Source: Thermoprotei archaeon
Lineage (GTDB): Archaea; Thermoproteota; Thermoprotei_A; Sulfolobales; Acidilobaceae
Assembly (NCBI GenBank): GCA_029335875.2
Contig: JARJMZ020000004.1
Coordinates: 22,649 to 86,648, forward strand
Direction: 5' to 3'
Length of the DNA: 64,000 nt
Positions within the stretch are counted from its first letter, which is position 1; each line of letters starts with the position of its first letter. Positions 1,820-53,667 of the stretch are shown in pieces. A program made the position numbers and the translations under genes. The notes beneath the pieces were generated by a model. The model worked only from the letters and a program-made list of their open reading frames with translations. It was not told the DNA's origin and ran no database searches.

Positions 1820-2058
1820 GTAGCCGCCGGAACCCAATACCATAGGTTTCCCCCGTGGCTCCGGCTTCCTCCTCAGCCCATTGAGGGCTCCATAGGCTGA
1901 CACCACTGGGGCCGCCTCGTGTTCGCCTCTCACTGTCAATAATTGAGGCAGACATAGCGGGGGGCCTTAAAATAACTCTAAGCTTCCATTTCACATTAAT
2001 GCCTCTAAGTAACCGTGTTAACAGAATACCTTAGAGATTTTACTCTAGAGAACACTCC
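1820..2058 (-). repeat. interspersed element copy A (about 239 bp)
   Basis: In reverse complement it aligns with copies B-G. The shared 5' end is TCTAGAGTAAAATCTCT. It carries the TTAGAGGCAT...TGTGAAATGGAAGCTTAGAGTT module, the GC-rich core GAGGCGGCCCCAG...GGAGCCCTCAATGGGCTG, and the 3' end GGTTCCGGCGGC. The 71-aa track ORF 1779..1994 lies inside it. Confidence 0.85.
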
Positions 2059-2238
2059 TTCTTAAAGGGCCTCAGCCTGGAGTCTTGCGGGCCTATGGGG
2101 TTTGAGGGGGCGGGTCCTCTAAAGCCCCTCTTTTCCTTTCTTGGGCGGGTTTTGGAGGTACTGCTCTTCTTCTCTCATTTAAACGGCTCCATTAGTTGTT
2201 TTAAAGTTTTCAGCTAAGTTCAAGCTGGGTGTTACGGG

Positions 2239-2766
2239 TTGGGTAAACTCTATACTAGGAGTGGCGATGACGGGTACACTTATGGGAAGCCGGGCCTTAG
2301 AATGCCTAAGAGTCACCCTCTCATAGAGTTTTACGGCTCTCTAGATGAGGCTAACTCGATGATAGGGCTTGCCAGGAGCCTTCTTAGGAGCGTCACATCG
2401 GACTATGAGGATGATTTGAGGCGGATCCAGAGGCTAGTCTTCAGGATAGGGTTTAGCGTCACATCAGGCAACCTAAAAGTTTCGGATGAGGATGTTAGAA
2501 GGTTAGAGGAGATCACAGACAAGTACTATGATAAGCCCTTAGAGGGTTTCATACTCCCCGGAGGCCCCCCGGGGGCCGCCGCGCTCCACGTAGCTAGGGC
2601 TGTTGTGAGGAGGGCTGAGAGGAGGCTCGTAGTCTTAAAGCTTGAAGGTGAAAACATCAATGATATCCTAGTGAAGGCTCTCAACAGGCTTAGCGACGCC
2701 CTCTTCGCAATGGCTTTAAACGCTTCTAGAAAAACAGGCTACGAGCCTGAGCCCGCCACTTTCTAG
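2239..2766 (+). CDS. ATP:cob(I)alamin adenosyltransferase, PduO type
   Basis: N-terminal YTRSGDDGYT motif and an all-helical body of about 175 aa, typical of the PduO/MMAB family. Start codon is TTG. Confidence 0.8.
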   Translation: MGKLYTRSGDDGYTYGKPGLRMPKSHPLIEFYGSLDEANSMIGLARSLLRSVTSDYEDDLRRIQRLVFRIGFSVTSGNLKVSDEDVRRLEEITDKYYDKPLEGFILPGGPPGAAALHVARAVVRRAERRLVVLKLEGENINDILVKALNRLSDALFAMALNASRKTGYEPEPATF

Positions 2767-3065
2767 CCCCCTTTAGAGTTGAACCATAAACTGTAGCTGC
2801 CTGGAGTTTAGGTAACCAGCTGTACATCGAGTTTGACGTGTCCTCCCCCGGACTATTTGCTCCACAGAGCGTGGCGGGCGTTGTGATGAGCGTGAGCATC
2901 CTGGTATTTGGCTGCGAGCGCCTGAAACTGTGAGAACTCTGCGTGGGGAGGCGTTAGGCTTGTAATTGGAGTTTTTCCCTGAGGTGATGGGGGAGTATAT
3001 ACTGGTTTAGACGAACAATTTTAAGGTTCTCATGATATGTTCTTCCCTATCGAGGTGCTGCCCTA

Positions 3066-3407
3066 GTGGATATTGTGGGGGCTCTTAGGGTTTCGCTGGG
3101 TCTTACTATAGCGGCTTACCTTGGGTTTAATTTTATAGCCATGTATTTGAGTTTGCTGCCTACGTTCCTCTATATTGAGAACTTCTTCTGGGCTCTAGCC
3201 TATTTTATAGCCCTTTACTCTTCCTTTAGGGGGTTTTTATGGCCTTCTCTCCTCGTATCTTCTTTTAACGCCGGCAGGGTCTCAGACGCTATTATAACAT
3301 CTGGGGGGTCGCTCCACGCCTTGGCCCTAGAGCATACGCCTTTATTCGCCCTCCTCATCCTTGTAATGGCCTTATCCGCAGCCTCCATGGTGAGGAGGTG
3401 TGGCTAG
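3066..3407 (+). CDS. hypothetical integral membrane protein
   Basis: 113-aa ORF with about four hydrophobic segments. No family recognised. Confidence 0.4.
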   Translation: MDIVGALRVSLGLTIAAYLGFNFIAMYLSLLPTFLYIENFFWALAYFIALYSSFRGFLWPSLLVSSFNAGRVSDAIITSGGSLHALALEHTPLFALLILVMALSAASMVRRCG

Positions 3408-4551
3408 GCCTGGCAGGCTGGAGCTCCTTGTAATGGCTTTTGTGGGGTTCGCCGGGATACTGGACACTTCGTTCATGATACCTGTAATAGCGCTCTACGC
3501 TAAAAGCCTGGGAGCCAGTGAGGCTGAAGCCGGGTTCATAGCAGGCTTTTATAGCATGGTGGCTATACCAGCCAGCGTAGTAGCTGGGATCCTCGTGGAT
3601 AGGATGGGTAGGAAGAGGATGCTCGTGGCAGGCCTCCTGTGGGACGCTGTGTCTGTGTTCCTGTACTCTGTAGTGGTTAGCAGCTCCCAGCTCCTTGTTG
3701 TTAGGGGGCTCCATGCAGTGGGCGGGAGCCTAGTCTACCCGGCTTTCATAGCTAGAACTAGGGAGATTAGCGGTGAAAGGGTAGGCTACGGTATGGGCAG
3801 GCTTCTAGCCCCGGTGGCTCTAGCTATAGCATTGGGGTCTGCTAGCGCCGGCTTCCTGACATACATGCTAGGCTATAGGATCCCGTTCATCCTCCTATCC
3901 CTGATAATACTGCTGGCCGGCATCCTAGCTTTAACGCTCCCTGAGAGGCCTGAAGAGAGGAGCTGGAGGGGGCTCAGGGGGGTTGTTGAGGGGATCAGGG
4001 AAGCCGGACTCCCCGCAGCTTCAGGCCTATGGCTCATACTAGTCTTATACATAACCCTGGGGATCATAGTTGGGGGGCTGGCCACAAGCATATCTGGAGT
4101 TGTAGTGCTGGGAGAGAGGGAGGCTAGGCTCTTAACTGGCATGGGGGTCGCGGCTTCCTCCTTGGTGGCCGCTGTTTCCCTCGTGTTGAGCGGGCTAGTC
4201 TCGGATGCGAGAGGGGTTAGGCTCGTAATCCTATACTCTATAGCATTGTCAACCCTAGGCTTCATACTTCCAGCGGCTGTTCCAAGCCCTCAAACCATAC
4301 TATTAGGCTTCATAGTGTTCGGCGTAGGCCTCGGGGGCTTCCTGCTATCTAGTACTATACTAGTCACCAAAGTCTCCGCCAAGGCTAGGGGTACTGCTGT
4401 GGGGCTCCAGCAGGTTCTCAATATAGTTGGCGTGGCTGTTGGGGCTCCCATGGGGGGCCTCTTGGCAGCTATGAGCTCCTATCATGTTCTAGTAGCCGCA
4501 GCTCTAATCCCTCTCCTGGCCCTCCCAGCAATAGCTTATAGCGGCCGCTGA
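3400..4551 (+). CDS. MFS transporter
   Basis: 383 aa with about 12 predicted hydrophobic helices and the MFS loop motif DRMGRKRM after TM2. Confidence 0.8.
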   Translation: MARPGRLELLVMAFVGFAGILDTSFMIPVIALYAKSLGASEAEAGFIAGFYSMVAIPASVVAGILVDRMGRKRMLVAGLLWDAVSVFLYSVVVSSSQLLVVRGLHAVGGSLVYPAFIARTREISGERVGYGMGRLLAPVALAIALGSASAGFLTYMLGYRIPFILLSLIILLAGILALTLPERPEERSWRGLRGVVEGIREAGLPAASGLWLILVLYITLGIIVGGLATSISGVVVLGEREARLLTGMGVAASSLVAAVSLVLSGLVSDARGVRLVILYSIALSTLGFILPAAVPSPQTILLGFIVFGVGLGGFLLSSTILVTKVSAKARGTAVGLQQVLNIVGVAVGAPMGGLLAAMSSYHVLVAAALIPLLALPAIAYSGR

Positions 4552-4585
4552 ACCCCCTGGGAAGCTGGGGTTTGAGGCGGTAGCG

Positions 4586-5308
4586 TTGAGGGCTCCAGTG
4601 CACCTTAGGGAAGCTAGGCTTGGAGATGTGGCGCCTAGGGTTATAGTGTCCGGAGACCCTAGTAGGGTTGACTACTTGGCTGGACTCCTGGAAGGTGCGA
4701 GGCTTATCAACGCTTACAGGGGGCTCAGGGTTTATACTGGCAGTTTTAAGGGTGCAGCTTACACTATAGCCTCCCACGGGATTGGAGCCCCCTCAGCCTC
4801 CATAGTTGTAGAGGAGCTCATAATGCTGGGGGCTAAGGCTATAGTGAGGCTCGGGACATGCGGGTCTCTAAAGGCTGAAGTTAAACTGGGGGACATAGTT
4901 ATACCTACCGTGGCAGCACACTATTCCGGGGGCTTATACTACCAGTACATGGGGGAGCACGCCTGCCCCCCGGCAGCCCCCACCTTCGATGTCCTAAAGG
5001 AGCTCGTAGACGAGGCGTCATCGAGAAAAGCTAGGTTCCACCTGGGCCCCATAGTGTCTAGCGACGCCTTCTACGCGGAGGATCCAGGGCTTGCAAGGAG
5101 ATGGGGGGAGAGGGGGGTTTTAGCTGTTGAAATGGAGTGTTCAGCCCTCTTCACCCTAGGCCATATGAGGGGCGTCAAGACCGGGGCTATACTAGTTGTG
5201 AGCGACACTCTAATAGACGGAGGCCACGCTACTGGCGAGGAGTTGAGAGAACATATCAGGGAGTCCGCCCTCATAGCTTTAAACGCTATGGCTAAGCTAA
5301 GAGTTTAA
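4586..5308 (+). CDS. nucleoside phosphorylase, PNP/UDP family 1 (purine/uridine/MTA phosphorylase-like)
   Basis: Family-typical segments are SGDPSRV, HGIGAPSASIVVEEL, RLGTCGSL and VEMECSALF. Confidence 0.85.
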   Translation: MRAPVHLREARLGDVAPRVIVSGDPSRVDYLAGLLEGARLINAYRGLRVYTGSFKGAAYTIASHGIGAPSASIVVEELIMLGAKAIVRLGTCGSLKAEVKLGDIVIPTVAAHYSGGLYYQYMGEHACPPAAPTFDVLKELVDEASSRKARFHLGPIVSSDAFYAEDPGLARRWGERGVLAVEMECSALFTLGHMRGVKTGAILVVSDTLIDGGHATGEELREHIRESALIALNAMAKLRV

Positions 5309-5318
5309 GGGCTACCCC

Positions 5319-5483
5319 CTACTTCTTGCTCGCGAACCTTTTCTTAACCCTTAAGTTTCTACTCCTACACCTCCTACACTTAACAGCGCTTATGGGGTTC
5401 AGAGCCCCACACTTCCTGCAAACTTTCTTTAGAACAACCCTCCTTTCGAATATGGCCAGCATCTCCGGGTCCCTGAGAGCCAC
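5319..5483 (-). CDS. rpl40e: 50S ribosomal protein L40e (not in the ORF track)
   Basis: Manual translation from GTG 5483: [54 protein letters not shown]. It has the classic eL40 C4 zinc ribbon CRKCG...CRRC. The 81-aa + strand track ORF 5326..5571 is its antisense shadow. Confidence 0.85.
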
Positions 5484-5642
5484 CCCTCAATCCCTAAATG
5501 GTAAACTGTTCAATCTCAGGCTTAAATACTCTCTAACAATAGGGCTCCCCAGAGGACAGTTTAGGGTTTAAGCGTTTAACGCCCACGCCTCATGGAAAGT
5601 TTAAAGCCCAGGAAAACAGCTAGGTAAAAGGGATAAGAGAGG

Positions 5643-6200
5643 TTGGCTGGTCTCAAACTACCCCTCCACGAGGTCTGCCTCGACTCCAACAAGCTGTGCG
5701 GCTCCTGTAGACTTAAAATTGAGAAAGGCCAGGTTGAACACTGGGAGGTTAGGGTTCTCAAAGCCCTACTAGAAGCCTACCGCTCCACAGGCTCCGAGAG
5801 TAGCCTAGCCTACGAGGCTTCAACTATAGCGGGCTCAACACTCTACATAGCCCTAGAGGGGCCCCCGCTGGAGGGCTTGGAGGAAGCCCTCTCTAGAGCC
5901 CTCAGACTCAGGGGGGTCGCCAGGGTTAGAATAATATATTTCACTGGGGGCCTGAAAGGGCTCCTCGAGAAAATATTAGACCAGAAGGTGATAGCCGTAA
6001 ACAAATTCTACTCCGTAGATGGAGCGTTAACACTAAAAGTGACAGTAGAGAACAGAAACCCGGGAGCTGAAAAACTAGCTTCATCCCTACTCAAAATCAA
6101 GGTGATAACGGAAGAGTCTAAAACAGAGAGGGAAACCAGAGGGAAGCCTTTAAAGGTTAAAGTTGAAGATGTGAAGAAAACCTTAGACAAGCTGTTCTAA
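5643..6200 (+). CDS. hypothetical protein with an N-terminal Cys cluster
   Basis: 185-aa ORF with an N-terminal C-x7-C-x2-C (CLDSNKLCGSC) and a Lys/Glu-rich C-terminus. Family not recognised. Confidence 0.45.
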   Translation: MAGLKLPLHEVCLDSNKLCGSCRLKIEKGQVEHWEVRVLKALLEAYRSTGSESSLAYEASTIAGSTLYIALEGPPLEGLEEALSRALRLRGVARVRIIYFTGGLKGLLEKILDQKVIAVNKFYSVDGALTLKVTVENRNPGAEKLASSLLKIKVITEESKTERETRGKPLKVKVEDVKKTLDKLF

Positions 6201-6324
6201 AGAAGTAAACGCCGGATAACCGTTAGAAACTCAAGCCCCACTTAAACCTTCCCCATCCACATCTGCATAGGCTATCACGAGGTTAACATTCTAGAAACTT
6301 TAAGATTGCCCTGTGAGAGCATCA

Positions 6325-6930
6325 CTACAGGTTATTGTGGGTGCTTCGAGCCCCCACGATCCCCTTTTCTAGGAGTTTCCTGAGAGCTTGTCTTACAACA
6401 CGTTTTACTAGTGTGCGTGCTTCAGCGTTCTTGTAGAGTCTTATTGCCGCCCTCCTTAGGCTTCCGGCTCTCGCGACCTCTTCGAGTATTCTAGTTTCTC
6501 TCTCTGTTAGGCTGTTTTTGAGGTATTTGAGGGATATTCGGGCTATGTCTATGGGGGTTAGTCCCATGTACGGGTCTCTATGGTCTAGTTCTGTGAGTTT
6601 CCTTGTGACTTTGAGCTCTATTATTGTTACTTCCGCGTTAGGGCTTATGTCACCATAGTTGGCTTTGAGCTCTTTTATGAGCCTCTCGGCGCTTTCAAAC
6701 CCGTCAATCCTGGCATCCTCGTCGTTTAACTCTGACACTTTCTTATACCTCACTTTTACTATTCTAGCTTTACAGATGGGTCTCCCCCCGCTGTGAACTA
6801 TGACCTCCCCATGTTTTGGGATTACCCTGCCGAGTCTCACTGTAGCTTTCTTATCGCCTCTGAGGAGCATGTCAGCATATATCTCCTTGAGCATTAAGTG
6901 TCTCCCGAGGAACCTTATATTGGAGCTCAA
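6325..6930 (-). CDS. ASCH (PUA-like) domain protein with a C-terminal helix-turn-helix
   Basis: The N-terminal half resembles an ASCH domain (LLRGDKKATVRLG..., beta-rich). The C-terminal segment LTERETRILEEVARAGSLRRAAIRL looks like a LuxR/sigma70-region-4-type HTH. Confidence 0.55.
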   Translation of the reverse strand: MSSNIRFLGRHLMLKEIYADMLLRGDKKATVRLGRVIPKHGEVIVHSGGRPICKARIVKVRYKKVSELNDEDARIDGFESAERLIKELKANYGDISPNAEVTIIELKVTRKLTELDHRDPYMGLTPIDIARISLKYLKNSLTERETRILEEVARAGSLRRAAIRLYKNAEARTLVKRVVRQALRKLLEKGIVGARSTHNNL

Positions 6931-6958
6931 AACTTTAAGCCCCCCGCAGGGGGTCTAT

Positions 6959-7243
6959 TTACTCCCCATACTCGCCCATTTGATCCAGGACTAGCTCGTA
7001 GTAAGAGTCTTTCGCCTGCTCTAGCTCCTCCTCCTTCTTAACGTCTAAGCTTCTCCTCCTCGATATCACTTTGGTCGTTAGTACTTTTCGCTCTCCTTTA
7101 ACAACTGTTCTATATGCTTCTTCATCCCTTCTCTCGAGTACTTCCTCATATCCGCACCTTACACATTTAACTAAATGCGTATCTTTCCTTTTCACCGGCA
7201 TCATCACGCCTCCGCATTTAGGGCAAAACTTCATATATTGCAC
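6959..7243 (-). CDS. zinc-ribbon protein resembling the N-terminal ribbon of TFS/RpoM, with no C-terminal ribbon
   Basis: MKFCPKCGGVMMPVKRKDTHLVKCVRCGYEE matches the TFIIS/Rpb9 N-terminal Zn-ribbon pattern. The remainder is a charged tail with no second CxxC pair. Confidence 0.5.
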   Translation of the reverse strand: MQYMKFCPKCGGVMMPVKRKDTHLVKCVRCGYEEVLERRDEEAYRTVVKGERKVLTTKVISRRRSLDVKKEEELEQAKDSYYELVLDQMGEYGE

Positions 7244-7296
7244 CCCTTAGCCCATTCTAAGCTATTAACCGGAGTTTTTAAACTTAACTACGAGCG

Positions 7297-8226
7297 TTAG
7301 ACTCCTGTTTCACCGGCTCTTTTAAATACTAGAGGGTTATACCAGAGAGTTCTCCCGCCAGTCACTCTCGAGAGCCTCTCTGGGGTTCTAGCTAGAACAT
7401 TCCCCCTAAGCTTTATTGGCGCCCCACACTTGGAGCATGAGCCCCCAGTCAAGGCTGAGGCTTTAAGGATCCCCGGGACCCTGGCCATGACCACAGTATT
7501 ACAGGAGGGGCACCGTGTTTCAAGGATGTTATAGGCTTCAGAGTGCACATAAACATAGCTCAACCTCCCCCCCAAACTCTCATAGAGTCTATTAACAAGG
7601 TTCCAGCCTCCAGGGTTCTCTATGAAAACGTGGAGGGGGACGTCGAGGGCGGCCAACGCCTCCACAGTGTCTCCGAGAACCCCGACCTCAGGCTTCCACA
7701 AATACGCTACGTGCTCCACGTGAACCCCAGCCTTAGCCATAACCCTTACAGCTCTTAAAAGCCTCTCTCTAGCTTCACTAAACCCTGTTAGGATAGAGTG
7801 GTCCTCTGTAACGGCGAAATCCAAAGCTTCAAGCCCGGCTAAATCAGCAACCCCATGAATCCTAGCCCCCACCATCAAGCCGGCACCGTTTAAAGCCCCC
7901 CGGAACTCCTCTAGACTCAGGGACCCCAAGGGTTCAAACCCGTCTAGCACCACGACGCTCGGCTTCCACATTTTAACAGTATGCCTTAACACCCTAGCAT
8001 CTAGGGGGACCCCGGGGTAAACCTCGGGCCCCCTCATCCACTCGCAAACCTCGAAAGAAGCTTCACACTCAAGGCTCTTTAAAGGCCTTACTAGAACTCT
8101 GAGGGCGGAGCCTCCAGGAGCTAGGTGGAATAGTGGGATAGCCTCAACAGTAGAGTAGCCGAGTAGGACAACGTTAATAGAGCCCAGAACCCCTCCCCCT
8201 AACCTTTTAGGAAGCCTAAAACCCAA
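7297..8226 (-). CDS. PflA/AmrS-like radical-SAM-fold homologue lacking the CX3CX2C motif
   Basis: VEAIPLFHLAPGGSALRV resembles the IEKKPLxHFxPG segment that precedes the cluster motif in COG1180-type activases. The cluster position reads LECEASFEVCEW. A C-terminal CPSC...CSKCG ribbon is present. Confidence 0.45.
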   Translation of the reverse strand: MGFRLPKRLGGGVLGSINVVLLGYSTVEAIPLFHLAPGGSALRVLVRPLKSLECEASFEVCEWMRGPEVYPGVPLDARVLRHTVKMWKPSVVVLDGFEPLGSLSLEEFRGALNGAGLMVGARIHGVADLAGLEALDFAVTEDHSILTGFSEARERLLRAVRVMAKAGVHVEHVAYLWKPEVGVLGDTVEALAALDVPLHVFIENPGGWNLVNRLYESLGGRLSYVYVHSEAYNILETRCPSCNTVVMARVPGILKASALTGGSCSKCGAPIKLRGNVLARTPERLSRVTGGRTLWYNPLVFKRAGETGV

Positions 8227-8879
8227 AATATTGGGAGATCCCCTAAGACTAGGGCTATCGCATAGCCTATAGCTAGGTGGGCTACATAGGGGTGGCCTGG
8301 AGAAGCTACTACATAGGCTTCAGGGTCCCCCTTGGAAGCTTTCGCTACAGCGCTCCTCAAATCCTCATCAATACTGCACCCGCCCTCTACGTCTACAAGC
8401 CACCATTTAAACCCCTCGTCGCCGAGAAGCCTCCCAGCTTTAACCCTATACTTGAGCCTAGCAGCACACTTAAAGTCTAGGGAGCCGCATACTTTAAACC
8501 CTGAATAAACCTGGTAGGCGAGCCCGGGTATCACAGAGTAGAGTACGGCCAGGTAAATAAAAGGCATGAAAGACCCGGGCCTTATGGGGGCGAGAACAGA
8601 GATAAGGGCTAAAGCTAGAACATCGGCACCCCCCATCATGCAAAACCTGTACATAACGTAAACAACAGCGACAACAATAATAGACGCGAGGTAATAGACA
8701 GCTAGAACCCTGAAATCATAACCTAACACATATATGGGAACAGAAACTAGAGCCCCAGGAACCCCCGCTAAAACCCAGTAACGAGGAGTCACCTCCCTAA
8801 ACCTAACATCTAATAGAGCAGCATAACCAAGAACAACCAAGACATAAACTGCCGGAACCCACTCCAAAACACCCACCAA
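8199..8879 (-). CDS. type IV prepilin / preflagellin peptidase (A24 family)
   Basis: Polytopic membrane protein with an early Asp (LLDVRFREV) and the second catalytic motif MMGGADVLAL. Confidence 0.75.
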   Translation of the reverse strand: MVGVLEWVPAVYVLVVLGYAALLDVRFREVTPRYWVLAGVPGALVSVPIYVLGYDFRVLAVYYLASIIVVAVVYVMYRFCMMGGADVLALALISVLAPIRPGSFMPFIYLAVLYSVIPGLAYQVYSGFKVCGSLDFKCAARLKYRVKAGRLLGDEGFKWWLVDVEGGCSIDEDLRSAVAKASKGDPEAYVVASPGHPYVAHLAIGYAIALVLGDLPIFWVLGFLKG

Positions 8880-8912
8880 GCTAAACCTACCACGCTTACA
8901 GCCCTTATAAGT

Positions 8913-9142
8913 GGAGAGTAAAATCTCTAGGGTTATCTAGAGGTATTTAAGAGCATAATAATGTGAAATGGAAGCTTAGAGTTGTTTTAAGGCCCCCACG
9001 CCGTGTCTACCTCAATTATTGGCGGTCAGAGGCTGACACGAGGCGGCCCCGCGGCATCCGCCTATGGAGCCCCCAAGGGGCTGATGGGGAAGCCGGGCCT
9101 AATATCATGGGAAAACCTATGGTATTGGGTTCCGGCAACCAC
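8913..9142 (+). repeat. interspersed element copy B (about 230 bp)
   Basis: Contains AGAGTAAAATCTCT...TAGAGGTATTTAAGAGCATAATAATGTGAAATGGAAGCTTAGAGTT...GAGGCGGCCCC...GGAGCCCCCAAGGGGCTG...GGGTTCCGGCAACCAC. It has a deletion of about 17 nt in the 5' module relative to A, D and E. The track ORF 8963..9154 lies inside it. Confidence 0.85.
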
Positions 9143-9192
9143 AGGTTAGAATGAGTATTTAAAGAACTAGGTTAGTATTTAAAAATCTAGGT

Positions 9193-30697: not shown

Positions 30698-31648
30698 TTG
30701 GAGTACACTAACCTGGGCGGGACTGAAGTCAAGGTATCCAGGGTCGGCTTGGGGGCTTGGCAGTTTAGCGACGTGTGGGGGGTTAAAGACTATGATGTGG
30801 CTAAGTCTATAATAGCTAAAGCTCTAGAGTCAGGGGTCAACTTCATAGACACTGCCGTGGTTTACGGTAGGGGTCTAAGCGAGCAGTTCATAGGCAAAGC
30901 TCTCAGGGAGCTTAATGTTAGGAGGGATGACGTGGTAATAGCTACTAAGATACCTGGAGAATTCCTGAGCCCCCACGATGTGTTTAAGGCTGTGGAGAGG
31001 AGTCTGAGCAGGCTTCAGACGAGCTATATAGACATGCTCCTAGTACACTGGCCCCCATGCTGGCATCATATCCCAACATGTGTTTACATGAGGGCTTTAG
31101 AGAGGCTGGTAAACCTCGGCAAGGTGAATTATCTGGGGCTGAGCGACTACCCTGTGGAGCTTGTGGACGCAGCTAGGATGTGCCTATCTAGAGTGGACAT
31201 TGAAGCCCTCCAAGTCAGATTCAACCTGGCGGAGAGGTGGGCTGAGGAGGAGCACATACCTTATGCTGAGGAGAACGAGATGACCGTAATGGCGTGGAGC
31301 CCCCTAGCTAAAGGAGCTATAACCGGGAAATACAGCCTAGAAGAAGTTCAGAAACTTCAGGACTTAAGGGTTAACGAGCCCCTATTCCAACCAAGCAACT
31401 ACCCTCAAGTACTCGAGCTAGCAAGCATTGTTAAAAGTATAGCCTCGAAATACGGGAAAACCCCAGCCCAAGTAGCTTTAAACTGGCTAATATCATACAG
31501 CGACGTAATAGTCCCCATACCCGGGGCTAGAAACCCCCAACAGGTTGAGGAAAACGCCGGCTCAGTAGGGTGGAGGCTAACATACGAAGATTGGAGGGCG
31601 CTAGACGAGGCTAGCAGAAAACTTAGAATAACATATGCGACATTCTAA
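30698..31648 (+). CDS. aldo/keto reductase
   Basis: GLGAWQF, FIDTAVVYG, LLVHWP and the IPGARNPQQVEEN C-terminal motif. Confidence 0.85.
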   Translation: MEYTNLGGTEVKVSRVGLGAWQFSDVWGVKDYDVAKSIIAKALESGVNFIDTAVVYGRGLSEQFIGKALRELNVRRDDVVIATKIPGEFLSPHDVFKAVERSLSRLQTSYIDMLLVHWPPCWHHIPTCVYMRALERLVNLGKVNYLGLSDYPVELVDAARMCLSRVDIEALQVRFNLAERWAEEEHIPYAEENEMTVMAWSPLAKGAITGKYSLEEVQKLQDLRVNEPLFQPSNYPQVLELASIVKSIASKYGKTPAQVALNWLISYSDVIVPIPGARNPQQVEENAGSVGWRLTYEDWRALDEASRKLRITYATF

Positions 31649-31652
31649 CAGG

Positions 31653-31936
31653 AGAATGTTTTCCCGAGTAGAATTTTTAGGGTTTCCCCCTGGTTAACAT
31701 GGTTACTTAGAGGTATTTAAGAACATCGTGGTGTTTGTGGACTATGAGAGCTTAGAGTTGAGTTTTTAAGACTTCTCCGTTATGTGAGCCCGCTCCTATG
31801 ATTGGCCGTCGGAGGAGAGCGCAGGGAGGCCCCAGTAATGCCCGCCAATGGAGCCCCCAACGGGCCGAGGGGAAGCCGGGCCCAATACCATTAGAAAGAA
31901 CCAAAAACACTCATAACATTGGATTCCGGCGACCAC
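31653..31936 (+). repeat. interspersed element copy C (about 284 bp), left arm of an inverted pair
   Basis: Starts 5 nt after the AKR stop codon. By manual comparison, 31819-31934 is identical to the reverse complement of 34718-34833. Confidence 0.9.
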
Positions 31937-31967
31937 ACAGATAATTACCATGTTAGGCGTGCGGCTG

Positions 31968-33138
31968 TTAAGCTTTATCGGGCTGTGCTCTCATTTTCCT
32001 GTCGTTTGGTAGTAGTAGGGAGAAGAGGAATGCTAAAGCGGTCGCTGCTGCCAGGAAGATGAAGTAGTGTTTCACGCTTCCTATAAACTGGGGGGCCAGG
32101 AATAGGAGGATGACGGAGATTATCCTGCTGATGAAGCCCACGAAGCCGGTAGCGCTTCCCTGGATTTCTTTCCTATGAAATCTACCAATCCAATCCATTA
32201 TCAGCGGGTAACCCGGCATCATTAGAAGTCCTGAAGCCGCTAGGAGAATGTAAAGCGCGTAAACCTCATGGTAGCTGGAGAGGGTTAAGAAGGATATGGT
32301 TATTAGGGGGATCACGGTTCTAAGGTATATAGTCCTGGTTTCTAGCTTTGAGACTATGCTTGGAATAAGAGATATGCCTATTAGCCCGGACGCTATAGTG
32401 AGCGCTACGGCTTGACCGGCGTATCTTCCCAGACCAACTGTTTCAAGTACGGGCTGAAGCCATGTTGCCATGTTATCGAAAACAGCAATTCCAAGGCCTA
32501 GGATGAGCCCGAGCATCCATAAATCTCTTTTCCCAACGACCTCCCTCACTCTGAAACTGTAACTTGACGTGGAATATTCCTGTTTAACGAGGAGGATCCC
32601 CGAGAGGAAGAATGTGATCCCAACGAGAGAGGGCTGCACCGGGGATTATCAGCATTGCCGCCCCCCCGACAGTATATAGATAGTATCCAGCCGCTAGCGC
32701 GGATATTATTCCTAGGTACATTGAAAGGCTCAACACGGAGATCATTAGAGCCCTCCTCTCCTCGTATAATCTTGAGGCGAACGGGACGAAGCCGTTGAGG
32801 AGGAACGGTTGACCTATAGCCGCTAAAAGCTGACAGAGGAAAAGCCATGGATAGGAGTGGGGCATTAAGAGCCTTAATGACCCGCCAAGGAACGTCATGA
32901 AAGCGCCGAAAGTTAGCCAGAAGCGGAAGTTCCTGTCTAAAAGTATTCCTGAGGGAATAGTGAGGATCAAGAAGAAGAGGGGGTAGAGGACTGCCAGGTA
33001 ACCTACTAATACTGGTTGCACGCCCAAGTCTTCAGCTATACTGGTTAAAACAGGAGAGAAGGTGACCCACACATATTGCGATGTGAAGGTTATTATTATG
33101 AACCCTACTGCTAGCAGAATTTTCACTTTAATCACCAT
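31968..33138 (-). pseudogene. MFS transporter split by a frameshift
   Basis: ORF 32584..33138 encodes the N-terminal six-helix half. ORF 31968..32639 encodes the C-terminal half in another frame. They overlap around 32584-32639. Confidence 0.7.
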
Positions 33139-34506
33139 ACAGCTTTATCACAATATCCTTTACAAACTCCTCAACTGTTTTCGGGTCGAACATGTCGACA
33201 AGCAGGGGTGCGATGCTCGAATCTATCCTTCCACTCGTTAAATCTTCCAGGATACTCTCAACCGGTAGTATTTCAGCTAAGCTTCTCTTAACCCTGCTCT
33301 TCTCCGCAACCTTCCCCGCGTCTGCAACGAACTCCCCGGCCGTTTCCCTGTGGATGGGTGAGAGAGTTAAATGTATGTTCATAGGTATTGAATACTTTTC
33401 CACCTCCCTCTGGAGGTGAAAGTGCCACCCCATCCCCCTCATAGCCAGCGTGAAAGACAATAGGTCAACATCGGAGTTGAAAAGACTTAAAATAGGTGAT
33501 TCAACTGGGGCTACACTCTTAAAACCCAGAGGCTTCAAACCCTTAAGTATAGCCTCCCTCGCCTCTAGCACGCTCTTAGATAACCTCAGGTAGCCTTCTT
33601 CGCCTAAAAACTTTACTACGGCGAACGCGGAAGCCAAAGGACCTACGGAACGTGAAGAGAGGACGGCAGGGTTGACGAAGACGTACCCGGGGTTTTGGAC
33701 GTCAACAAACATTGATTCCTTCTTCAACTCCGCCGACCGGAATAAAACTGTGGAGGCACCTTTTGGAGTATAACCGTATTTATGGAGGTCCGCGGAGATA
33801 GATGTAACCCCATCTACTCGGAAATCGAAAAGCTCCACCCTTTCGCCTAGCTTCTCGAAAAACGGTAGGATGAAGCCTCCGAGGCAGGCGTCAACGTGAA
33901 GGGGTGTCCCCTCATCTACTGCTACATCAGCGATCTCCCTAACCGGGTCTATAGTGCCAAAAGGCCAGTTAGGGGCTGAGACCGCTATTAACGCTGTTTT
34001 ATCGCTTACCGACTCTTTAAGGCTCTCAACGTCGGCTTTTAGTTTCTCGTCTATATCGAAGTGTCTGATTTTCATTCCAAGGTAATGAGCTGCTTTCGCG
34101 AAGGAAGGGTGAATGGTGAAAGGCGCTAGAACCTCGGGAACCACATTCTTGCCCCTCTGCTTCCAGAAATAGTTCCTGGCAGATAGAACTGCAAGCATTA
34201 TGCTTTCAGTCCCTCCATAAGTGAAGGTCCCGTAGGTGTTCTCCCCATGGAGCAGCTTCTTCGTGAAATTTAAAACCTCTTTTTCGAAGAAGATAGCACT
34301 CCTATAAACAGTAAAGTCAAGCATGTTTTTATTGTAAAATTTCAGCAAAGCTTTCATCGCGACGTTTTTTAACTTTCTCATCCCCCGTTTCATAAATATA
34401 CGCGAAAAACTTCCCGGAAACGAGCACGTCCAGTTTTTCAGCCTCACTTAAAAGCTTGTCGATTTCAAGCTCTTTGTTTTTCAGATTCGCCTGATAAGGA
34501 GGTCAA
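33128..34506 (-). pseudogene. PLP-dependent group II decarboxylase with a frameshifted N-terminus
   Basis: The body has the PLP lysine motif SISADLHKYGY. The conserved N-terminal segment (NLKNKELEIDKLLSEAEKLDVLVSGKFFAYIYETGDEKVKK) lies in a different frame from the 33128..34447 ORF. A TTG at 34506 preceded by GGGAGGT lies in a third frame. Both apparent shifts are at A-runs. Confidence 0.6.
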
Positions 34507-34715
34507 CTTTTTCTTTTACCTCCCAAATTTCAAGATCCTAAAACTTATATAATTGTAGCCTTGAGAAGCGTTCTAACAGTTTCAATAGCATACTAGAGCG
34601 TGATAAGAGAGAGGAAAGCAGGCTAAAATGAGCACTTCACATGTGGATTAAACTGCAAGCCTCCTATTAGCTATCAGAATGTCACATACGTTATTTTAAG
34701 CCTCCTACTAGCCTC

Positions 34716-34989
34716 GCGGTCGCCGGAATCCAATGTTATGAGTGTTTTTGGTTCTTTCTAATGGTATTGGGCCCGGCTTCCCCTCGGCCCGTTGGGGGCT
34801 CCATTGGCGGGCATTACTGGGGCCTCCCTGCGCCCGCCTCCGATGGCCAATCATGGGGGTGGGCTCGTATAGCGGGGGAGCCTTAAAATATCTCTAAGTC
34901 TTCATAGTTCACATTATTATGTCTTTAAATGCCTCTAAGTAGCCATGTTAGCAGGGAAACACCAGAGATTTTACTCTAGAAAACATTCT
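34716..34989 (-). repeat. interspersed element copy D (about 274 bp), right arm of the inverted pair
   Basis: The reverse complement aligns end to end with C. The 3' 116 nt are identical to C. Confidence 0.9.
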
Positions 34990-39908: not shown

Positions 39909-40157
39909 ATTGTTGCCGAAACCCAATTCCATGATTTTAGGCCCGGCTCCCCCTCAGCCCCTTGGGGGCTACATTGGCTGGCATTACTGGGGCCTCCCTG
40001 CGCTCTCCTCCAACTACCAATCATAGGAGCGGGCTCACATAGCGTGGAAGCCTTAAAATAACTTTAAGCTTCCATTTCACATTATTATGTCCTTAAATGC
40101 CTCTAAGCAGCCATGTTAGCAGGGAAACACCAGAGATTTTACTCTAGAAGACAGTCT
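39909..40157 (-). repeat. interspersed element copy E (about 249 bp)
   Basis: The reverse complement aligns with C, D and G (CTTCTAGAGTAAAATCTCTGGTGTTTCCCTGCTAACATGGCTGCTTAGAGGCATTTAAGG...GGGAGGCCCCAGTAATGCC...). Its 5' end lies 17 nt from the pus10 start codon. Confidence 0.88.
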
Positions 40158-44327: not shown

Positions 44328-44346
44328 GGATCCCCCTCCGAGGCCC

Positions 44347-45860: not shown

Positions 45861-46298
45861 TTGGCTTTAGAGCTTAGGCCTGAGTGGAAGAAGTTTAGGT
45901 ATAGGGGTAGGAGTTTGGAGGAGCTTATGAAGATGCCCCTTTCGGAGCTAGCTAAGCTTCTACCTTCTAAGCAGAGGAGGAGGCTTTTGAGGGGGTTTAC
46001 GCCAGCCCAGCAGATACTTTTAAGGAAAATTAGGAGGGCTAGGAGGCAGGCTGCTGAGAAGGGTCTTGATAAGGTTCCTGTAATCAAGACTAGGGTTAGG
46101 GATATGATCATACTCCCTGAGATGGTTGGGTTAACCATAGCAGTCCATAATGGTAAAGAGTATGTGCCTGTGAGGATAGCTCCTGAAATGATAGGACACT
46201 ATCTTGGAGAGTTCGCCCCTACTTGTAGGGCTGTCCAGCATGGGGAGCCCGGGTTAAAGGCTACTAAGAGCAGCCTCCACCTCTCGGGCCAGAAGTGA
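45861..46298 (+). CDS. rps19: 30S ribosomal protein S19 (uS19)
   Basis: [14 protein letters not shown]...[12 protein letters not shown]...[16 protein letters not shown]-like TATATAAG lies at 45821-45828, upstream of the TTG start. Confidence 0.9.
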
Positions 46299-46307
46299 GG
46301 GTGTTGA

Positions 46308-46784: not shown

Positions 46785-46810
46785 CTCTGACTAAGATTAA
46801 GAAGTATTTC

Positions 46811-47530
46811 TTGAGCCAGTCCATCCTGAGGGTTAAGGTTGACGAGTATCTGGCCCACAACTTCTACGAGGCAGGCTATAGTGGGGTTCACATTGTTAAG
46901 ACAGCTTTAGGCGTTAGAGTGCACATTTACGCTGAAAGGCCAGCTTTAATAATAGGGAGGAGGGGCTCAACAATAAGGGATCTCCAAAAGATATTCGCAA
47001 CAGTTTTCGGCATGGACAACCCGCAGATAACAGTGAGCCAGCAGGAGAACCCCGAGCTTGACGCTAGGATCCAGGCTTTCAGGATTGTTAGGCTCATAGA
47101 GAGGGGCTTCCACTTCAGGCGCGTCGCGTTCGCAGTGCTTAGGAGGATAATGGCTAATGGGGCTTTAGGCGTGGAAATAACTGTTAGCGGTAAGCTGGTG
47201 GCTGAGAGGTCTAGGTTTGAAAAGTATAGGGAGGGTAGGGTTTACAAGGCGGGCCATGTTGTTGACGAGCTCGTGGATAAGGCTGTAGCCTATGCGAGAC
47301 TCCCTAAGGGCATTATAGGGGTTGAAGTTTTAATAGTGAAGCCTGGAACCCCTCCAGACCATGTTAGGGTTAGAGAGGCTGGTGAGGTTAAAGAGTTCGT
47401 GGCCAAGGTTAGAGAGGAGGTTGCAGCCAAAGGCTTCAAAGCCCCGGAGTTCGAGGAGCTGGAGGGGGTGCTGGAGGAGGCTGAGGAGATAGAGCTGGAG
47501 GAGGTTGATGAGGTTGGCTCCCAAACATAA
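46811..47530 (+). CDS. rps3: 30S ribosomal protein S3 (uS3)
   Basis: KH domain IIGRRGSTIRDLQ and an acidic C-terminal tail. The S3-like frame is open back to 46778 (IALTKIKKYF...) with no canonical start codon there, so the start is uncertain. Confidence 0.88.
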   Translation: MSQSILRVKVDEYLAHNFYEAGYSGVHIVKTALGVRVHIYAERPALIIGRRGSTIRDLQKIFATVFGMDNPQITVSQQENPELDARIQAFRIVRLIERGFHFRRVAFAVLRRIMANGALGVEITVSGKLVAERSRFEKYREGRVYKAGHVVDELVDKAVAYARLPKGIIGVEVLIVKPGTPPDHVRVREAGEVKEFVAKVREEVAAKGFKAPEFEELEGVLEEAEEIELEEVDEVGSQT

Positions 47531-50580: not shown

Positions 50581-50745
50581 CTGGCTAAATTTAAACCTCC
50601 AAAACCCAAGACTATGGGCAGAGGAGCTCAGAAATGTCAGAGGTGCGGCACGAGGGATGCTGTTATACAAAAGTACGACTTATACCTTTGCAGGCAGTGC
50701 TTCAGGGAAATAGCTTACGCTTTAAACTTCAGGAAATACTCCTAG
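50581..50745 (+). CDS. rps14: 30S ribosomal protein S14 type Z (uS14), not in the ORF track
   Basis: Manual translation: (L)AKFKPPKPKTMGRGAQKCQRCGTRDAVIQKYDLYLCRQCFREIAYALNFRKYS, stop TAG 50743-50745, with a C4 zinc motif. The full-length form would need CTG 50581 as its start. The only canonical in-frame start is ATG 50614. Confidence 0.85.
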   Translation: MAKFKPPKPKTMGRGAQKCQRCGTRDAVIQKYDLYLCRQCFREIAYALNFRKYS

Positions 50746-50756: not shown

Positions 50757-51158
50757 ATGGTTATGATGGACACCCTCTCTAACGCCCTCGCAACCATAAA
50801 GAACTGTGAGATGAGAGGTAAAAGGGAAGCCCTAATAATGCCAGCCTCAAAGCTAATAGCCGAAGTCTTAAGAGTAGTACAGAAAGAAGGGTACATAGGG
50901 GACTTCGAGTACATAGACGATGGGAGATGGGGGAAATTCAGGGTACAACTCTTGGGGAGGATAAACAACATAGGAGTAATAAAGCCTAGGACATCGGTCA
51001 AATACGTGGAACTAGTGAAACTACCAGAAAACCTGAGAAAATACCTGGCAAGCAGAGACATGGGAATACTAATACTAACAACAAACCAGGGAGTAATGTC
51101 CCACAAAGAAGCCATAGCCAGAAAAATAGGAGGAATAGCAATCGCATACGTATACTAA
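50757..51158 (+). CDS. rps8: 30S ribosomal protein S8 (uS8)
   Basis: [19 protein letters not shown]...[17 protein letters not shown]...GGIAIAYVY. Confidence 0.92.
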
Positions 51159-51227
51159 ACCTTAAAAACAAACCCCACAAAAACCAGTTTAACCCCTTAT
51201 AAACCCTACACGCCTAAGTAAACTTGT

Positions 51228-51505
51228 GGTGGGTGCCCCCCAAGCATCCGCGCGGACACGCTAACCCCAACCCGAGGGGACTAAACCCGCGGACGCAATA
51301 AGGGGGGTATAGAGTAGCAGAGGAAACCATAAAAGCCCAAGAGAAGGCAAACCTCAGGGAGACCCCTGAGGTAAACGCCTCTCAAGGGCTCTAAGGTTTC
51401 CCCTGCCACTCTACACCCCTCTAAAGCGCCCGCGAGCTTAGCCCCCTCACCGGGCCCGGGGGTGAAGGTTAGCGTGTTTCTAGAAATGCTTGAGGGGCAC
51501 CCGCC
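51228..51505. ncRNA. GC-rich nested-palindrome element; candidate structured ncRNA of unknown class (strand unresolved)
   Basis: A terminal 20-bp helix (GGTGGGTGCCCCCCAAGCAT / ATGCTTGAGGGGCACCCGCC) encloses three hairpins. One of them is a near-perfect hairpin of about 120 nt (51302-51420). There is no ORF. TTATAAA at 51197-51203 lies about 25-31 nt upstream of the + strand 5' end. Confidence 0.45.
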
Positions 51506-51531
51506 TCCTATAGAATCATTACATAAAATTT

Positions 51532-51652
51532 AGACTATTTTCTAGAGTATAATCTCTGGAGTTTCTTGGTTAACATGGTTGCTTGGAGACATTGAGGCTA
51601 GGGGAAGCCGGGCCCAATACCATGGTGTTGGGTTCTGGCGCCGTTTCTCAGC
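51532..51652 (+). repeat. interspersed element copy F: 121-bp internal-deletion derivative
   Basis: The 5' module (AGACTATTTTCTAGAGTATAATCTCTGGAGTTTCTTGGTTAACATGGTTGCTTGGAGACATTGAGG) joins directly to the 3' part (CTAGGGGAAGCCGGGCCCAATACCATGGTGTTGGGTTCTGGCGCC). Confidence 0.8.
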
Positions 51653-51659
51653 CTCCTTT

Positions 51660-52973
51660 TTACCACATTGTTAGGAATATTATTAGGCTTATAACATAGT
51701 GGATTATTAGGCTTACTATGGTGAATGGTATCGTGATTTTCATCCACTCGTGCCACACTACTTTTCTTCCTAGGGCTTTCTCAGCTAGTACTAGTGATAG
51801 GTATAGTGCTGGGGCTCCAGCTATTGTCGCGTTGCTCCCTAGGGTTCCAGACCATACTGTGGCCCAGAGGTGTGGCCATGGGTCTATGCCGTGCTCTGTT
51901 GCCGCTTGTTTTAGTGTTACGAGTGTTGTGAGTATTATGGCGTCGTGCTCTATTACAGTTGATAGGGATGCTACGATCCAGTATGTCATTGTGTAGGATG
52001 TTGCTAGCGGCCCCGCTAAATACCCTGATAGGGTTGCTGCGACACTACCTATCCAGCCTCCTATTTCGAGCCCTTTAACTAGGCTGAATAGTGAAGCGTA
52101 GAATATGACGACTTTCCACTCCATGTCTCTAAGCACTTCCTCGAAGCTTGGTATCCTGTTGAGCCTTATTCTTAGGATTTCGAGGGTTAAAGCTGTAGCT
52201 ATAGCCGTGGACATAGATATGGCTCCTAGGGGGACGTTGCCGAGCATTGGCCTTATAGACGCTAAGGCTATGAACACTAGGAACCCGGCTATCGAGCACG
52301 CCGCCGTCACCCTATCCACTTCAGGCTTCTCCAGGTTTAAACCGGATAGAGGCACGTTGCGCAGCCCCCCAAACCATATGCGGTAGAATATGGCTAACGT
52401 CAGGATATACGATAGTGTTAAGAGGAGGAAACTGCCCGGGACCCCCCTAAACCATATGAAATCCAGGAACTCAGCCCCCGCAACACTATGGAGCATCTGA
52501 GGCGGCAAGTCCCCTAGAAGGAGGGCTGTACCCATGTAGTTAGCCGCTAAACCCACAATCATGGCTGCGATTAGGGGGTTTTGCCTAAGTTTTCTAGCAG
52601 TTTCAACAGCTAGACCTCCGAAGAGTAGTATTACGAGGACATTATCCACAAACATCGTTACGAAAGCGGCCATTAAAGTTATTGTTAGAAGGAGCTGGCC
52701 GTAGCTCGCAGACCTCTCGACAGCCAGGTACACGAGATACTCCGGGACCCTCGACTTTGAAAGGTAGCCGGAGAGAGTCCACATACCTATGAGTATCATT
52801 ATAACATTCCAGTCTACAGCCTTAAACGCGTCAACAAAAGTATAGTTTTCCGAGAGAACAGCTAAAACTACGACCCCCGCTAAAGCTATAAGACCCCTCT
52901 CCAAAGGGGCAAATATTATAGCTAATATTGTCATCAAAACTATTGCTAACGAAACATAATCCACCACTGACAC
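51660..52973 (-). CDS. ArsB/NhaD-superfamily (SLC13/CitMHS-like) ion transporter
   Basis: 437-aa polytopic protein with two homologous halves and family-like segments. Substrate unknown. Confidence 0.65.
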   Translation of the reverse strand: MSVVDYVSLAIVLMTILAIIFAPLERGLIALAGVVVLAVLSENYTFVDAFKAVDWNVIMILIGMWTLSGYLSKSRVPEYLVYLAVERSASYGQLLLTITLMAAFVTMFVDNVLVILLFGGLAVETARKLRQNPLIAAMIVGLAANYMGTALLLGDLPPQMLHSVAGAEFLDFIWFRGVPGSFLLLTLSYILTLAIFYRIWFGGLRNVPLSGLNLEKPEVDRVTAACSIAGFLVFIALASIRPMLGNVPLGAISMSTAIATALTLEILRIRLNRIPSFEEVLRDMEWKVVIFYASLFSLVKGLEIGGWIGSVAATLSGYLAGPLATSYTMTYWIVASLSTVIEHDAIILTTLVTLKQAATEHGIDPWPHLWATVWSGTLGSNATIAGAPALYLSLVLAEKALGRKVVWHEWMKITIPFTIVSLIIHYVISLIIFLTMW

Positions 52974-53038
52974 CTAAATTCCAATTAAAATGCGGCGTTC
53001 ACCCCCTAAAAGCTTAACCTAGAATATCGTGGAAAACC

Positions 53039-53398
53039 TCACGCTTCAACACTCAAAACCCTATCTCCGGCATCCCCAAACCTGGAACTATGAAGTATCT
53101 ATCGTCAAGTTCAGGATCTAACGCTAAACAGTATATGAGAACATCAGGGCGTTAAACCCCCCCACAAACTCCACCCCTTACTTTAATAATAGAGGCTACA
53201 ACAACCTTCCCAGACCCCCTAGCTTTAGCCTCCCTCACAGCAAACCCCACGGTTTTACCGGTGGCTGGCATAGGGTTAACAACTATAACTGCCCCCCTTC
53301 AAGCCTTAGGCGCTCTCAGATAGAAAACGTCCATTGAAACGCCGCCTACATCCTCCCCCCTCTTAGCAGCTATTAGAGCTATAGGAGCACCTCTATAT
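53039..53398 (-). pseudogene. upp: uracil phosphoribosyltransferase remnant (5'-truncated, two in-frame stops, one frameshift)
   Basis: Manual translation: ...IALIAAKRGEDVGGVSMDVFYLRAPKA*RGAVIVVNPMPATGKTVGFAVREAKARGSGKVVVASIIKVRGGVCGGV*RPDVLIYCLALDPELDDRYFIVPGLG. A 1-nt loss in a G-run then shifts the frame before the (D)AGDR motif. It aligns with the C-terminal half or so of E. coli Upp as I recall it. The N-terminal part is absent, and homology stops at the edge of copy G. Confidence 0.75.
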
Positions 53399-53667
53399 AG
53401 ACTGTTTTCTAGAGTGAAATCTTTGGGGTCTTTTGGTTAACATGCCGGTATAATGCGGTGCCCGAGGGCTATGAGAATTTAGGGTTTAATTTTCAGTGTC
53501 CCCTAATTTTACTAGCGGCGAGCCCGCCCCTATGATTGGCAGTTGGAGGCGGGGGCAGGGCGGCCCCAGTAATGCCCGCCTATGGAGCCTCCAATGGGCT
53601 GGGGGCCGGAGCCTAAAACCATAGGAAAGAAACAAAAACACCCACGGCATTAGGTTCCGGCGTCCAC
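53399..53667 (+). repeat. interspersed element copy G (about 269 bp)
   Basis: AGACTGTTTTCTAGAGTGAAATCTTTGG...GGGCGGCCCCAGTAATGCCCGCCTATGGAGCCTCCAATGGGCTGGGGGCCGGAGCC...GGTTCCGGCGTCCAC. This is the most diverged full-length copy. Confidence 0.85.

Follow-up and report, generated by a model that had tools for sequence, protein, structure and literature searches.

What kind of element is a short non-coding sequence that recurs seven times within 64,000 nucleotides of an archaeal genome, and how did its copies reach their present sites? The question is raised by positions 22,649 to 86,648 of contig JARJMZ020000004.1 (assembly GCA_029335875.2) of a Thermoprotei archaeon from the family Acidilobaceae. 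This whole stretch is hereafter called the window, and all positions are counted from its first letter. The original prediction, made from the sequence alone, had offered two readings of the repeat: a family of structured small RNA genes, or a non-autonomous mobile element devoid of terminal inverted repeats (TIRs), for example an IS200/IS605-type mini-element. Our results speak for the second one. It is very probable, in our opinion, that the family represents an inserted repeat mobilised in trans. For the narrower statement, that it is a lineage-specific non-autonomous IS200/IS605 element of the type known as palindrome-associated transposable elements (PATEs), our estimate of the chances is about even.

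The repeats are roughly 110-280 bp long and are designated A to G according to their order in the window (Table 1). When each copy was compared with the window by BLASTN, the other six copies were matched and nothing else. An nhmmer profile of the copies returned exactly seven loci, the E-values of A-E and G lying between 1.6e-83 and 6.5e-62, and reproduced the positions first proposed within a few bases. Since the middle part of copy F, including the core, is deleted, this copy was recovered in two parts (5e-13 and 8e-06). A degenerate 24-nt pattern of the core was matched six times, as compared to 0.00 expected in shuffled sequences, and self-BLAST of the window revealed no second repeat family. 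Relative to open reading frames (ORFs) of at least 100 aa, all copies are intergenic, as had been claimed. Alignment likewise recovered the predicted architecture, consisting of a sharp 5' terminus, two A/T-box modules, a GC-rich core and a 3' end reading GGTTCCGGCGACC. The predicted absence of a conserved ORF and of TIRs also stood. Translations in six frames are broken and inconsistent between copies, while the forward-frame translations gave no Pfam match at E<=10 and no remnant of TnpB; an inverted-repeat search on copies D, B and G found no terminal pair, and neither did the alignment of the termini.

Three features had escaped the original prediction: the truncation of copy B, an eighth fragment of the element and a flanking duplication of 50 nt linking copies C and D, which is discussed below. 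Copy B has lost its first ~12 nt at the 5' end and carries, in addition, an internal deletion of ~20 nt. In copy G, the 5' end is conserved, as are the core and the 3' end, while the region of the promoter-like modules has diverged. The eighth, solo fragment is followed by a 9-nt flank that is found again 580 bp further downstream, after copy G. The idea of a tandem duplication in the region of G was dropped, since 310 bp upstream and 250 bp downstream are unrelated. We also considered five window-specific intergenic segments (2059-2175, 2759-2993, 37336-37589, 42840-43019 and 45459-45818) as degenerate copies, and none of them scored above shuffled sequences. The first of these segments, 117 bp long, GC-rich and with hairpin potential, lies between the 5' end of copy A and the promoter of the adenosyltransferase gene; it has no counterpart in the contig of the sister species introduced below and no similarity to the repeat family.

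Table 1. Positions of the repeat copies and of the features associated with them (window numbering; copy D served as the reference for hairpins and modules)
Feature	Position	Strand	Remarks
Copy A	1821..2054	(-)	Subfamily A/B; nhmmer E=2.6e-67
Copy B	8915..9142	(+)	Subfamily A/B; nhmmer E=4.5e-65
Copy C	31657..31936	(+)	nhmmer E=4.5e-78; GAGAA (31652-31656) directly before
Copy D	34716..34985	(-)	nhmmer E=1.6e-83; TAGAA (34986-34990) directly before
Copy E	39909..40153	(-)	thi4/pus10 spacer; alignment with the empty site in L103
Copy F	51536..51645	(+)	Core-deleted, both hairpin-bearing ends kept; nhmmer (two pieces), alignment
Copy G	53403..53667	(+)	nhmmer E=6.5e-62, alignment
Solo fragment	53048..53087	(+)	Last ~31 nt of the element plus 9-nt flank AACCTGGAA
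Near-terminal 5' hairpin (copy D)	34962..34979	(-)	CTAGAG-TAAAAT-CTCTGG; stem kept wherever present, changes to G.T only
Near-terminal 3' hairpin (copy D)	34722..34777	(-)	Base GCCGG/CCGGC, then CCYAA/TTRGG, variable apex
Promoter-like modules 2 (TTAGAGGCATTTAA) and 3 (TTAGAGATATTTTAAG) (copy D)	34882..34938	(-)	Same TAGAG plus TATA layout as upstream of host genes
Inverted gene block bounded by A and B	2059..8912	.	Relative to sister; BLASTN of L101 against the window, L101 gene order
Inverted gene block bounded by C and D (MFS transporter, decarboxylase)	31937..34715	.	Relative to sister; BLASTN of L103 against the window, L103 gene order
t, 3' end of aldo-keto reductase gene	31607..31656	(+)	Directly 5' of C; starts after TAGAC (31602-31606), ends with GAGAA
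t', inverted second copy of t	34659..34715	(-)	Directly 3' of D; 37/46 identical in the ungapped core

Evidence of insertion comes from a sister species, represented by two contigs (L101 and L103; ENA ERZ6864471) that share ~83-86% nucleotide identity with the window and cover its positions 1-12471 and 28126-46986. At all five orthologous sites that can be inspected, namely those of copies A, B, C, D and E, the sister is devoid of the element; copy positions are thus not identical between the relatives, and this comparison, on which the mobility of the family had been made to depend, speaks for mobility. BLASTN and nhmmer found no copy in ~92 kb of sequence from the sister and three more distant relatives. 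Copy E proved to be a simple insertion into the spacer between thi4 and pus10, with 0 bases duplicated or lost in comparison with L103. In the orientation of the element, the empty site of the sister reads CCATTAAAAGAG / CTCACATTC, where the slash marks the junction and the right side begins with CTCAC; the occupied site in the window reads CCATTAAAAGAC / TGTCTTCTAGAG...GGCAACAAT / CTCATACCC. Copy E runs from TGTCTTC to CAACAAT, its right flank being CTCATACC, and the promoter region that it splits is contiguous in the sister species. Comparison with L101 set the boundary of copy A at ...GGCGGCTA / CTCTTG; this copy has the radA side next to its 3' terminus and an inverted block of genes opposite its 5' terminus. 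A flanking duplication was looked for at A, B, F and G, and none was found.

As for pus10 itself, copy E ends up 21 bp upstream of its start codon. The original TATA box (TTTATAAG, near 39875) has been moved about 250 bp away, and the terminal AGAGATTTTACTCT of the element now stands at the position where pus10 would need a TATA box (window 40130-40175).

No relative of the family turned up elsewhere in the collections scanned. DNA pattern scans of GTDB representative genomes, JGI metagenomes and IMG/VR, in which a second motif, BLAST or nhmmer served to verify each match, returned only chance bacterial and phage matches, and BLASTN against phage and plasmid collections gave no match. A six-frame pseudo-protein of two copies, designed to pick up miscalled ORFs or overlapping 3' ends of tnpB, had no match among 5.8 billion proteins, a search in which short matches were unable to reach significance. 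Rfam 15 at gathering thresholds recognised only two tRNAs in the whole window.

Boundaries deduced from the sister comparisons show that the element starts with TGTTTTCTAGAG and ends with ...CCGGCGACCAC, ~6 nt past a hairpin. Both termini are accompanied by palindromes. The 5' hairpin begins 7 nt from the element start and at the same time constitutes the first TAGAG plus A/T-rich module; it is present wherever this end survives, being shortened in B and weakened in C. The 3' hairpin is found in 7/7 copies, including the core-deleted F, where it has 15 bp. It spans 33-57 nt, its base is invariant, it stops ~6 nt short of the 3' terminus, and the most stable variant belongs to copy B (-30.3 kcal/mol). 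Directly upstream of the 5' terminus there is a short motif: GAGAA in C, TAGAA in D, AAGAC in E, TAGAC in F and G, and GGAG in A (B is truncated). In five of the six intact copies, AGA(A/C) immediately precedes TGTTTTC. The empty site of E in the sister already reads AAGAG, and, since AAGA is common to the occupied and the empty site, this one clean empty site suggests that the motif is part of the target and not of the element. Beyond these 4-5 nt, the sequences flanking the seven copies have nothing in common.

Such a set of features closely resembles that of PATEs, non-autonomous IS200/IS605 derivatives first defined in Haloquadratum walsbyi, which have no TIRs, carry near-terminal palindromes, make no target duplications, are too short for a transposase, follow a 4-6-nt targeting sequence at the 5' end, and occur as heterogeneous copies, some of them reduced to the ends by core deletions (PMC3119063). 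Most of these properties recur in the family described here: TIRs are absent, palindromes lie near both termini, no transposase would fit, the one clean insertion (E) caused no target duplication, a short oligonucleotide, the candidate targeting sequence, abuts the 5' end, the copies are heterogeneous (66-86% identity) and F is an ends-only derivative. The exception is the duplication at C/D. IS200/IS605 is, moreover, the most widespread family of insertion sequences in archaea (PMC13343696). Classical miniature inverted-repeat transposable elements, such as SM1-SM4 of Sulfolobus, are also small, non-coding, intergenic, multi-copy and mobilised in trans; unlike our family, they possess TIRs and generate regular short target duplications. 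We therefore file the repeat as a new PATE-like family, that is, a new sequence family of a known kind.

Each unit bears a small near-terminal hairpin on the left, two to three promoter-like modules in between and, at the end of its GC-rich right half, a long near-terminal hairpin. Keeping this in mind, the following scenario can be proposed. A single-tyrosine (Y1, HUH) TnpA encoded elsewhere in the genome would recognise both hairpins on the top strand, which would be excised as a circle and pasted 3' of a short AGA(A/C)-like motif without target duplication. Once dispersed, the copies serve as portable homology, and recombination and gene conversion between inverted copies have flipped two blocks of genes.

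Both of these blocks are seen in comparison with the sister species. Copies A and B stand at the exact ends of a 6.9-kb inversion (radA / A(-)...B(+) / coxI); the order in the sister is radA-peptidase...adenosyltransferase-coxI, and the corresponding spacers, ~100 bp and ~50 bp long, contain no element. Copies C and D bound a 2.8-kb inversion between the aldo-keto reductase and malate dehydrogenase genes. At the ends of either block, therefore, the copies form an inverted pair. Sliding identity revealed that 116 nt in the 3' halves of C and D are 100% identical, while their 5' halves share only 60-80%. The 5' half of D is nearly identical to that of E, with a 41-nt identical run, and the middle of C is closest to E. 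The proposed division into subfamilies, A and B versus the rest, holds, but the individual copies are mosaics. This mosaicism indicates gene conversion and crossover between copies, and homologous recombination between inverted copies accounts for the inversions. Inversions mediated by insertion sequences are similar in having inverted copies at both block ends and a homogenised tract between the partners; they differ in that the repeats here are only ~230-280 bp long and otherwise 60-80% identical, and in that one of the inversions is accompanied by a duplicated piece of a flanking gene.

The latter piece is the tract t, which comprises the final ~50 nt of the aldo-keto reductase gene. Only one t exists in the sister; the window has a second, inverted one (t'). 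If the inversion is undone, the order becomes t-element-t', which resembles a target duplication of 50 nt. The tract is bounded by two target-like motifs, TAGAC and GAGAA. It is tempting to suppose that the upstream TAGAC acted as an alternative cleavage or insertion site and that subsequent recombination or re-excision would have produced the 50-nt duplication.

A third rearrangement may be marked by copy F. The ribosomal-protein operon of the window (S19...L5, S14, S8; 51158-51660) ends after S8 and does not continue to L6. According to Pfam (S8, CitMHS), S8 is followed by copy F and then by a gene of the citrate-transporter family, and copy F may thus represent one more breakpoint.

The GC-rich right end deserves separate consideration. 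The 3' domains of copies A, B and G are more stable than their dinucleotide shuffles (z = -2.6, -3.8 and -2.6, respectively), and in A and B the forward folds have lower z than the reverse ones. Substitutions in stems result in G.T on the forward strand ~9 times and in A.C once; in this small sample, the excess suggests that the forward strand, as single-stranded DNA or RNA, is the structured one. Covariation is limited to about three pairs: a C-G, U.G, U-A series at one pair of the 3' hairpin; T-A versus A-T in a 7-bp pairing of the core CCWATGG with the 5' arm of the hairpin, which would form a pseudoknot; and a single pair within a 5' helix, the register of which is not the same in the subfamilies. 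Of the helices that had been predicted, the pairing CCTATGG/CCATAGG in G (7/7) and its counterpart CCAATGG/CCATTAG in C and D (6/7) is real and is the one that would make the pseudoknot with the 3' hairpin. The AGCCC/GGGCT hairpin holds in A, B, E and G, but C and D show an A.C mismatch in it. The bases of CGGCCCC/GGGG-AA-GCCG are contested by the better-supported base of the 3' hairpin, GCCGG/CCGGC, present in 7/7 copies.

Upstream of this domain there are three forward-facing units, each composed of YTAGAG and an A/T-rich box, at about +14, +58 and +103, the third lying ~25 nt before the GC-rich domain. The same layout of TAGAG plus TATA is found upstream of host genes, namely the S19 operon at 45816 and the genes at 21577, 24343, 30669 and 39777. 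In total, 45 occurrences of the motif were counted in the window versus ~12 in shuffled sequences, and 17 of the 45 fall within the elements. Host promoters often have TAGAG or TAGAA directly upstream of the TATA box, and these motifs may be the local equivalent of the transcription factor B recognition element (BRE). Judging from this common layout, the modules would function as promoters. No element-internal T-rich stop is evident. With a host-like module facing the right end, transcription from module 3 through the right end and into the flank is plausible.

Internal modules that may transcribe the right end into the flanking DNA would reproduce the layout of the TnpB guide, known as omegaRNA or right-end RNA. 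PATEs often encode omegaRNAs, which are used in trans by TnpB (PMC10055086), and Halobacterium expresses a PATE-derived non-coding RNA that is linked to the HgcC family (PMC4615843). With omegaRNAs, archaeal sotRNAs and HgcC (PMC8612924, PMC10055086, PMC4615843; RF00062), our family shares multiple copies, a GC-rich structured right end that stops a few nucleotides before the boundary, a transcript that would enter the flank, where the guide would lie, and a candidate pseudoknot. It differs in having no adjacent tnpB, no UUCA tetraloop and, for copies B, C and G, no meaningful Rfam match at E<=10, and in carrying a putative dedicated promoter inside a protein-less element. Copies of this kind may additionally be orphan guide-RNA genes used in trans. 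All in all, it is possible, though rather doubtful, that the element makes a guide-type RNA.

Several observations weigh against the assignment to the IS200/IS605 PATEs. The two terminal hairpins are unlike each other, while in many IS200/IS605 elements, and in PATEs, they are alike. The target motif is drawn from one clean empty site and one duplication boundary. The flanking duplication of 46-57 nt at C/D, the chief misfit, is atypical of peel-and-paste movement and needs an extra scenario such as the one given above. For C, D and E, folding of the 3' domain gives z near 0, no better than the shuffles. Pfam detected no transposase, TnpB, integrase or reverse transcriptase among ~45 ORFs of the window, a parent transposon of the IS605 type is not known, and, among Rfam families, HgcC included, none gave a meaningful match to copies B, C and G at E<=10, the few listed matches with E>1 being to unrelated families. 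The differences from the original PATEs also include the host, which belongs to the crenarchaeal Acidilobaceae and is not a haloarchaeon, and the interior of the element with its two to three promoter-like modules. It is also important that the polarity of the inversions is not fixed, because the outgroups lack the C/D block and none of them shares the radA context. In L106 and L107, the reductase and malate dehydrogenase genes adjoin each other, and the decarboxylase-MFS pair of the window (31648-35244; MFS, major facilitator superfamily) is an insertion relative to them.

The duplication and the inversions are the points at which other types of mobile element come into play. That the copies are non-autonomous derivatives of some different TIR-less type, be it rolling-circle (IS91- or Helitron-like), IS607, IS110/IS1111 or an unknown family, is in our view unlikely, yet of all the alternatives it survives best. 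Such elements might move replicatively, each event producing an inversion flanked by inverted sister copies together with a target duplication. Indeed, both inversions are bounded by inverted copies of the same subfamily. The tracts t and t' adjoin one copy at its 5' end and the other at its 3' end, an arrangement that an intramolecular replicative event would leave; rolling-circle elements would likewise be consistent with a 3' hairpin placed a few nucleotides inside the terminus and with a short motif at a single terminus. However, the 116-nt tract common to C and D, together with the D/E and C/E mosaics, points to gene conversion and homologous recombination, which suffice to explain the inversions, and on these grounds intramolecular replicative transposition was downgraded as their main cause. 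Moreover, the A/B inversion is free of any duplication, a 50-nt stagger is unknown in these families, and the conserved target of ~14 nt that an IS110-type element would leave is missing from the flanks.

The structured-RNA half of the original prediction is affected by the same recombination. According to it, the copies would be genes of a small structured RNA with their own promoter, whose transcript of ~150-165 nt acts in trans, and their dispersal would be a side effect of some duplication process. Host-type promoter-like modules facing the GC-rich domain, the best conservation being that of the core and the hairpins, the predominance of G.T among forward-strand substitutions, the compensatory changes in the 3' hairpin and the candidate pseudoknot, and the fold z of -2.6 to -3.8 in A, B and G all agree with such genes. 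Nevertheless, only 3/6 domains beat their shuffles, C, D and E being near 0, and about three pairs covary. The conservation can stem from gene conversion, which weakens the case for function. Copy F has retained the two ends and lost the whole RNA core, and no role would be left for the 5' terminus, which is sharply conserved and lies ~130 nt upstream of the predicted transcript. There is no match in Rfam, nor, in the collections scanned, any relative beyond a single species-level lineage. Candidates of the C/D-box or H/ACA type were discarded, since the alignment shows no conservation of the motifs AUGAUUG and CUGA between copies. An RNA gene family of this kind thus appears to us distinctly improbable as an explanation of the repeat.

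Somewhat less probable still is a combined possibility: that the copies are self-promoted orphan guide-RNA genes, or a new archaeal type of element, instead of passive passengers, that each of them transcribes its structured right end into the adjoining DNA, and that the movement itself generates duplications of ~50 nt and inversions bounded by sister copies. Were this the case, a pathway of transposition or RNA-guided rearrangement not described for IS200/IS605 would have to be assumed.

It might also be argued that nothing has moved into the window and that the repeats are old intergenic promoter or terminator cassettes lost by the sister lineage. Only one sister lineage was compared, and IS200/IS605-type excision is seamless, so that absence alone is no proof that an insertion never occurred. 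Against this stand the seven homologous copies at unrelated loci, the absence of copies from the outgroups L106 and L107 as well, and the fact that E splits a promoter region contiguous in the sister; we find this explanation very hard to credit. Least credible of all is a retroposon resembling short interspersed nuclear elements, copied via RNA and inserted by target-primed reverse transcription with target duplications of variable length: the variable flanking duplication (about 50 nt at C/D, none at E), the 5' truncation of B and the internal promoter-like modules would fit it, but archaeal promoters lie upstream of the transcription start, so a transcript from the internal modules would miss the 5' ~50-130 nt, which are conserved to a sharp boundary, the alignment shows no 3' tail, and no reverse transcriptase occurs among the scanned ORFs of the window.

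With regard to the host, RadA (~76% identical to that of Aeropyrum) and malate dehydrogenase (MDM7274611.1 in the window) place it among uncultured Acidilobaceae. The genes that neighbour the copies are ordinary housekeeping ones, such as radA and those for cobalamin adenosyltransferase, cytochrome oxidase subunit I, malate dehydrogenase, Thi4, Pus10, the ribosomal proteins and pyruvate:ferredoxin oxidoreductase, among others. Near-identical strains are present in three SRA runs, where contigs L001, L002 and L105 end inside copies A and D, as would be expected for a repeat with several copies; the repeats thus break short-read assemblies of this organism. On another contig (L114; Logan SRR23854657), whose malate dehydrogenase is 95% identical to that of the window, positions 1-190 upstream of the malate dehydrogenase gene contain CRISPR-like repeats (ATCTCCCATAAGGGARTAGRAAG) with ~35-nt spacers, in the place where the window has copy D.

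Some of the neighbouring genes depart from their counterparts in the sister species. In the gene for cytochrome oxidase subunit I, a 63-bp piece (10293-10355) is inverted in place, and the ORF is interrupted, comprising 362 aa (9193 to 10281) as compared to 554 aa in L101; this is either a true micro-inversion with pseudogenisation or an assembly artefact. Relative to the sister orthologues, the MFS transporter (31968-33138) changes frame near residue 170 and the decarboxylase (33128-34478) near residues 31-46, and both genes are located within the block inverted between C and D. The ORF of ribosomal protein S14 (50614-50745) has 43 aa from its first possible start, which is shorter than usual and may reflect an unusual start or an upstream frameshift.

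If the assignment holds, the repeats represent a PATE-type family in an uncultured aerobic lineage of the Acidilobaceae, from which, to our knowledge, no such element has been described. They also provide a compact natural case of 250-bp repeats remodelling a small archaeal genome: the changes comprise two inversions, displacement of the pus10 promoter, perhaps the splitting of a ribosomal-protein operon, and genes that are frameshifted or interrupted next to copies or between them. Worthy of attention, in our view, are the 50-nt duplication, the pairs of copies at the inversions and the putatively self-promoted right end. With its modules aimed at that end, the family offers a test case of whether protein-less IS200/IS605 derivatives in Crenarchaeota might serve as stand-alone omegaRNA genes.

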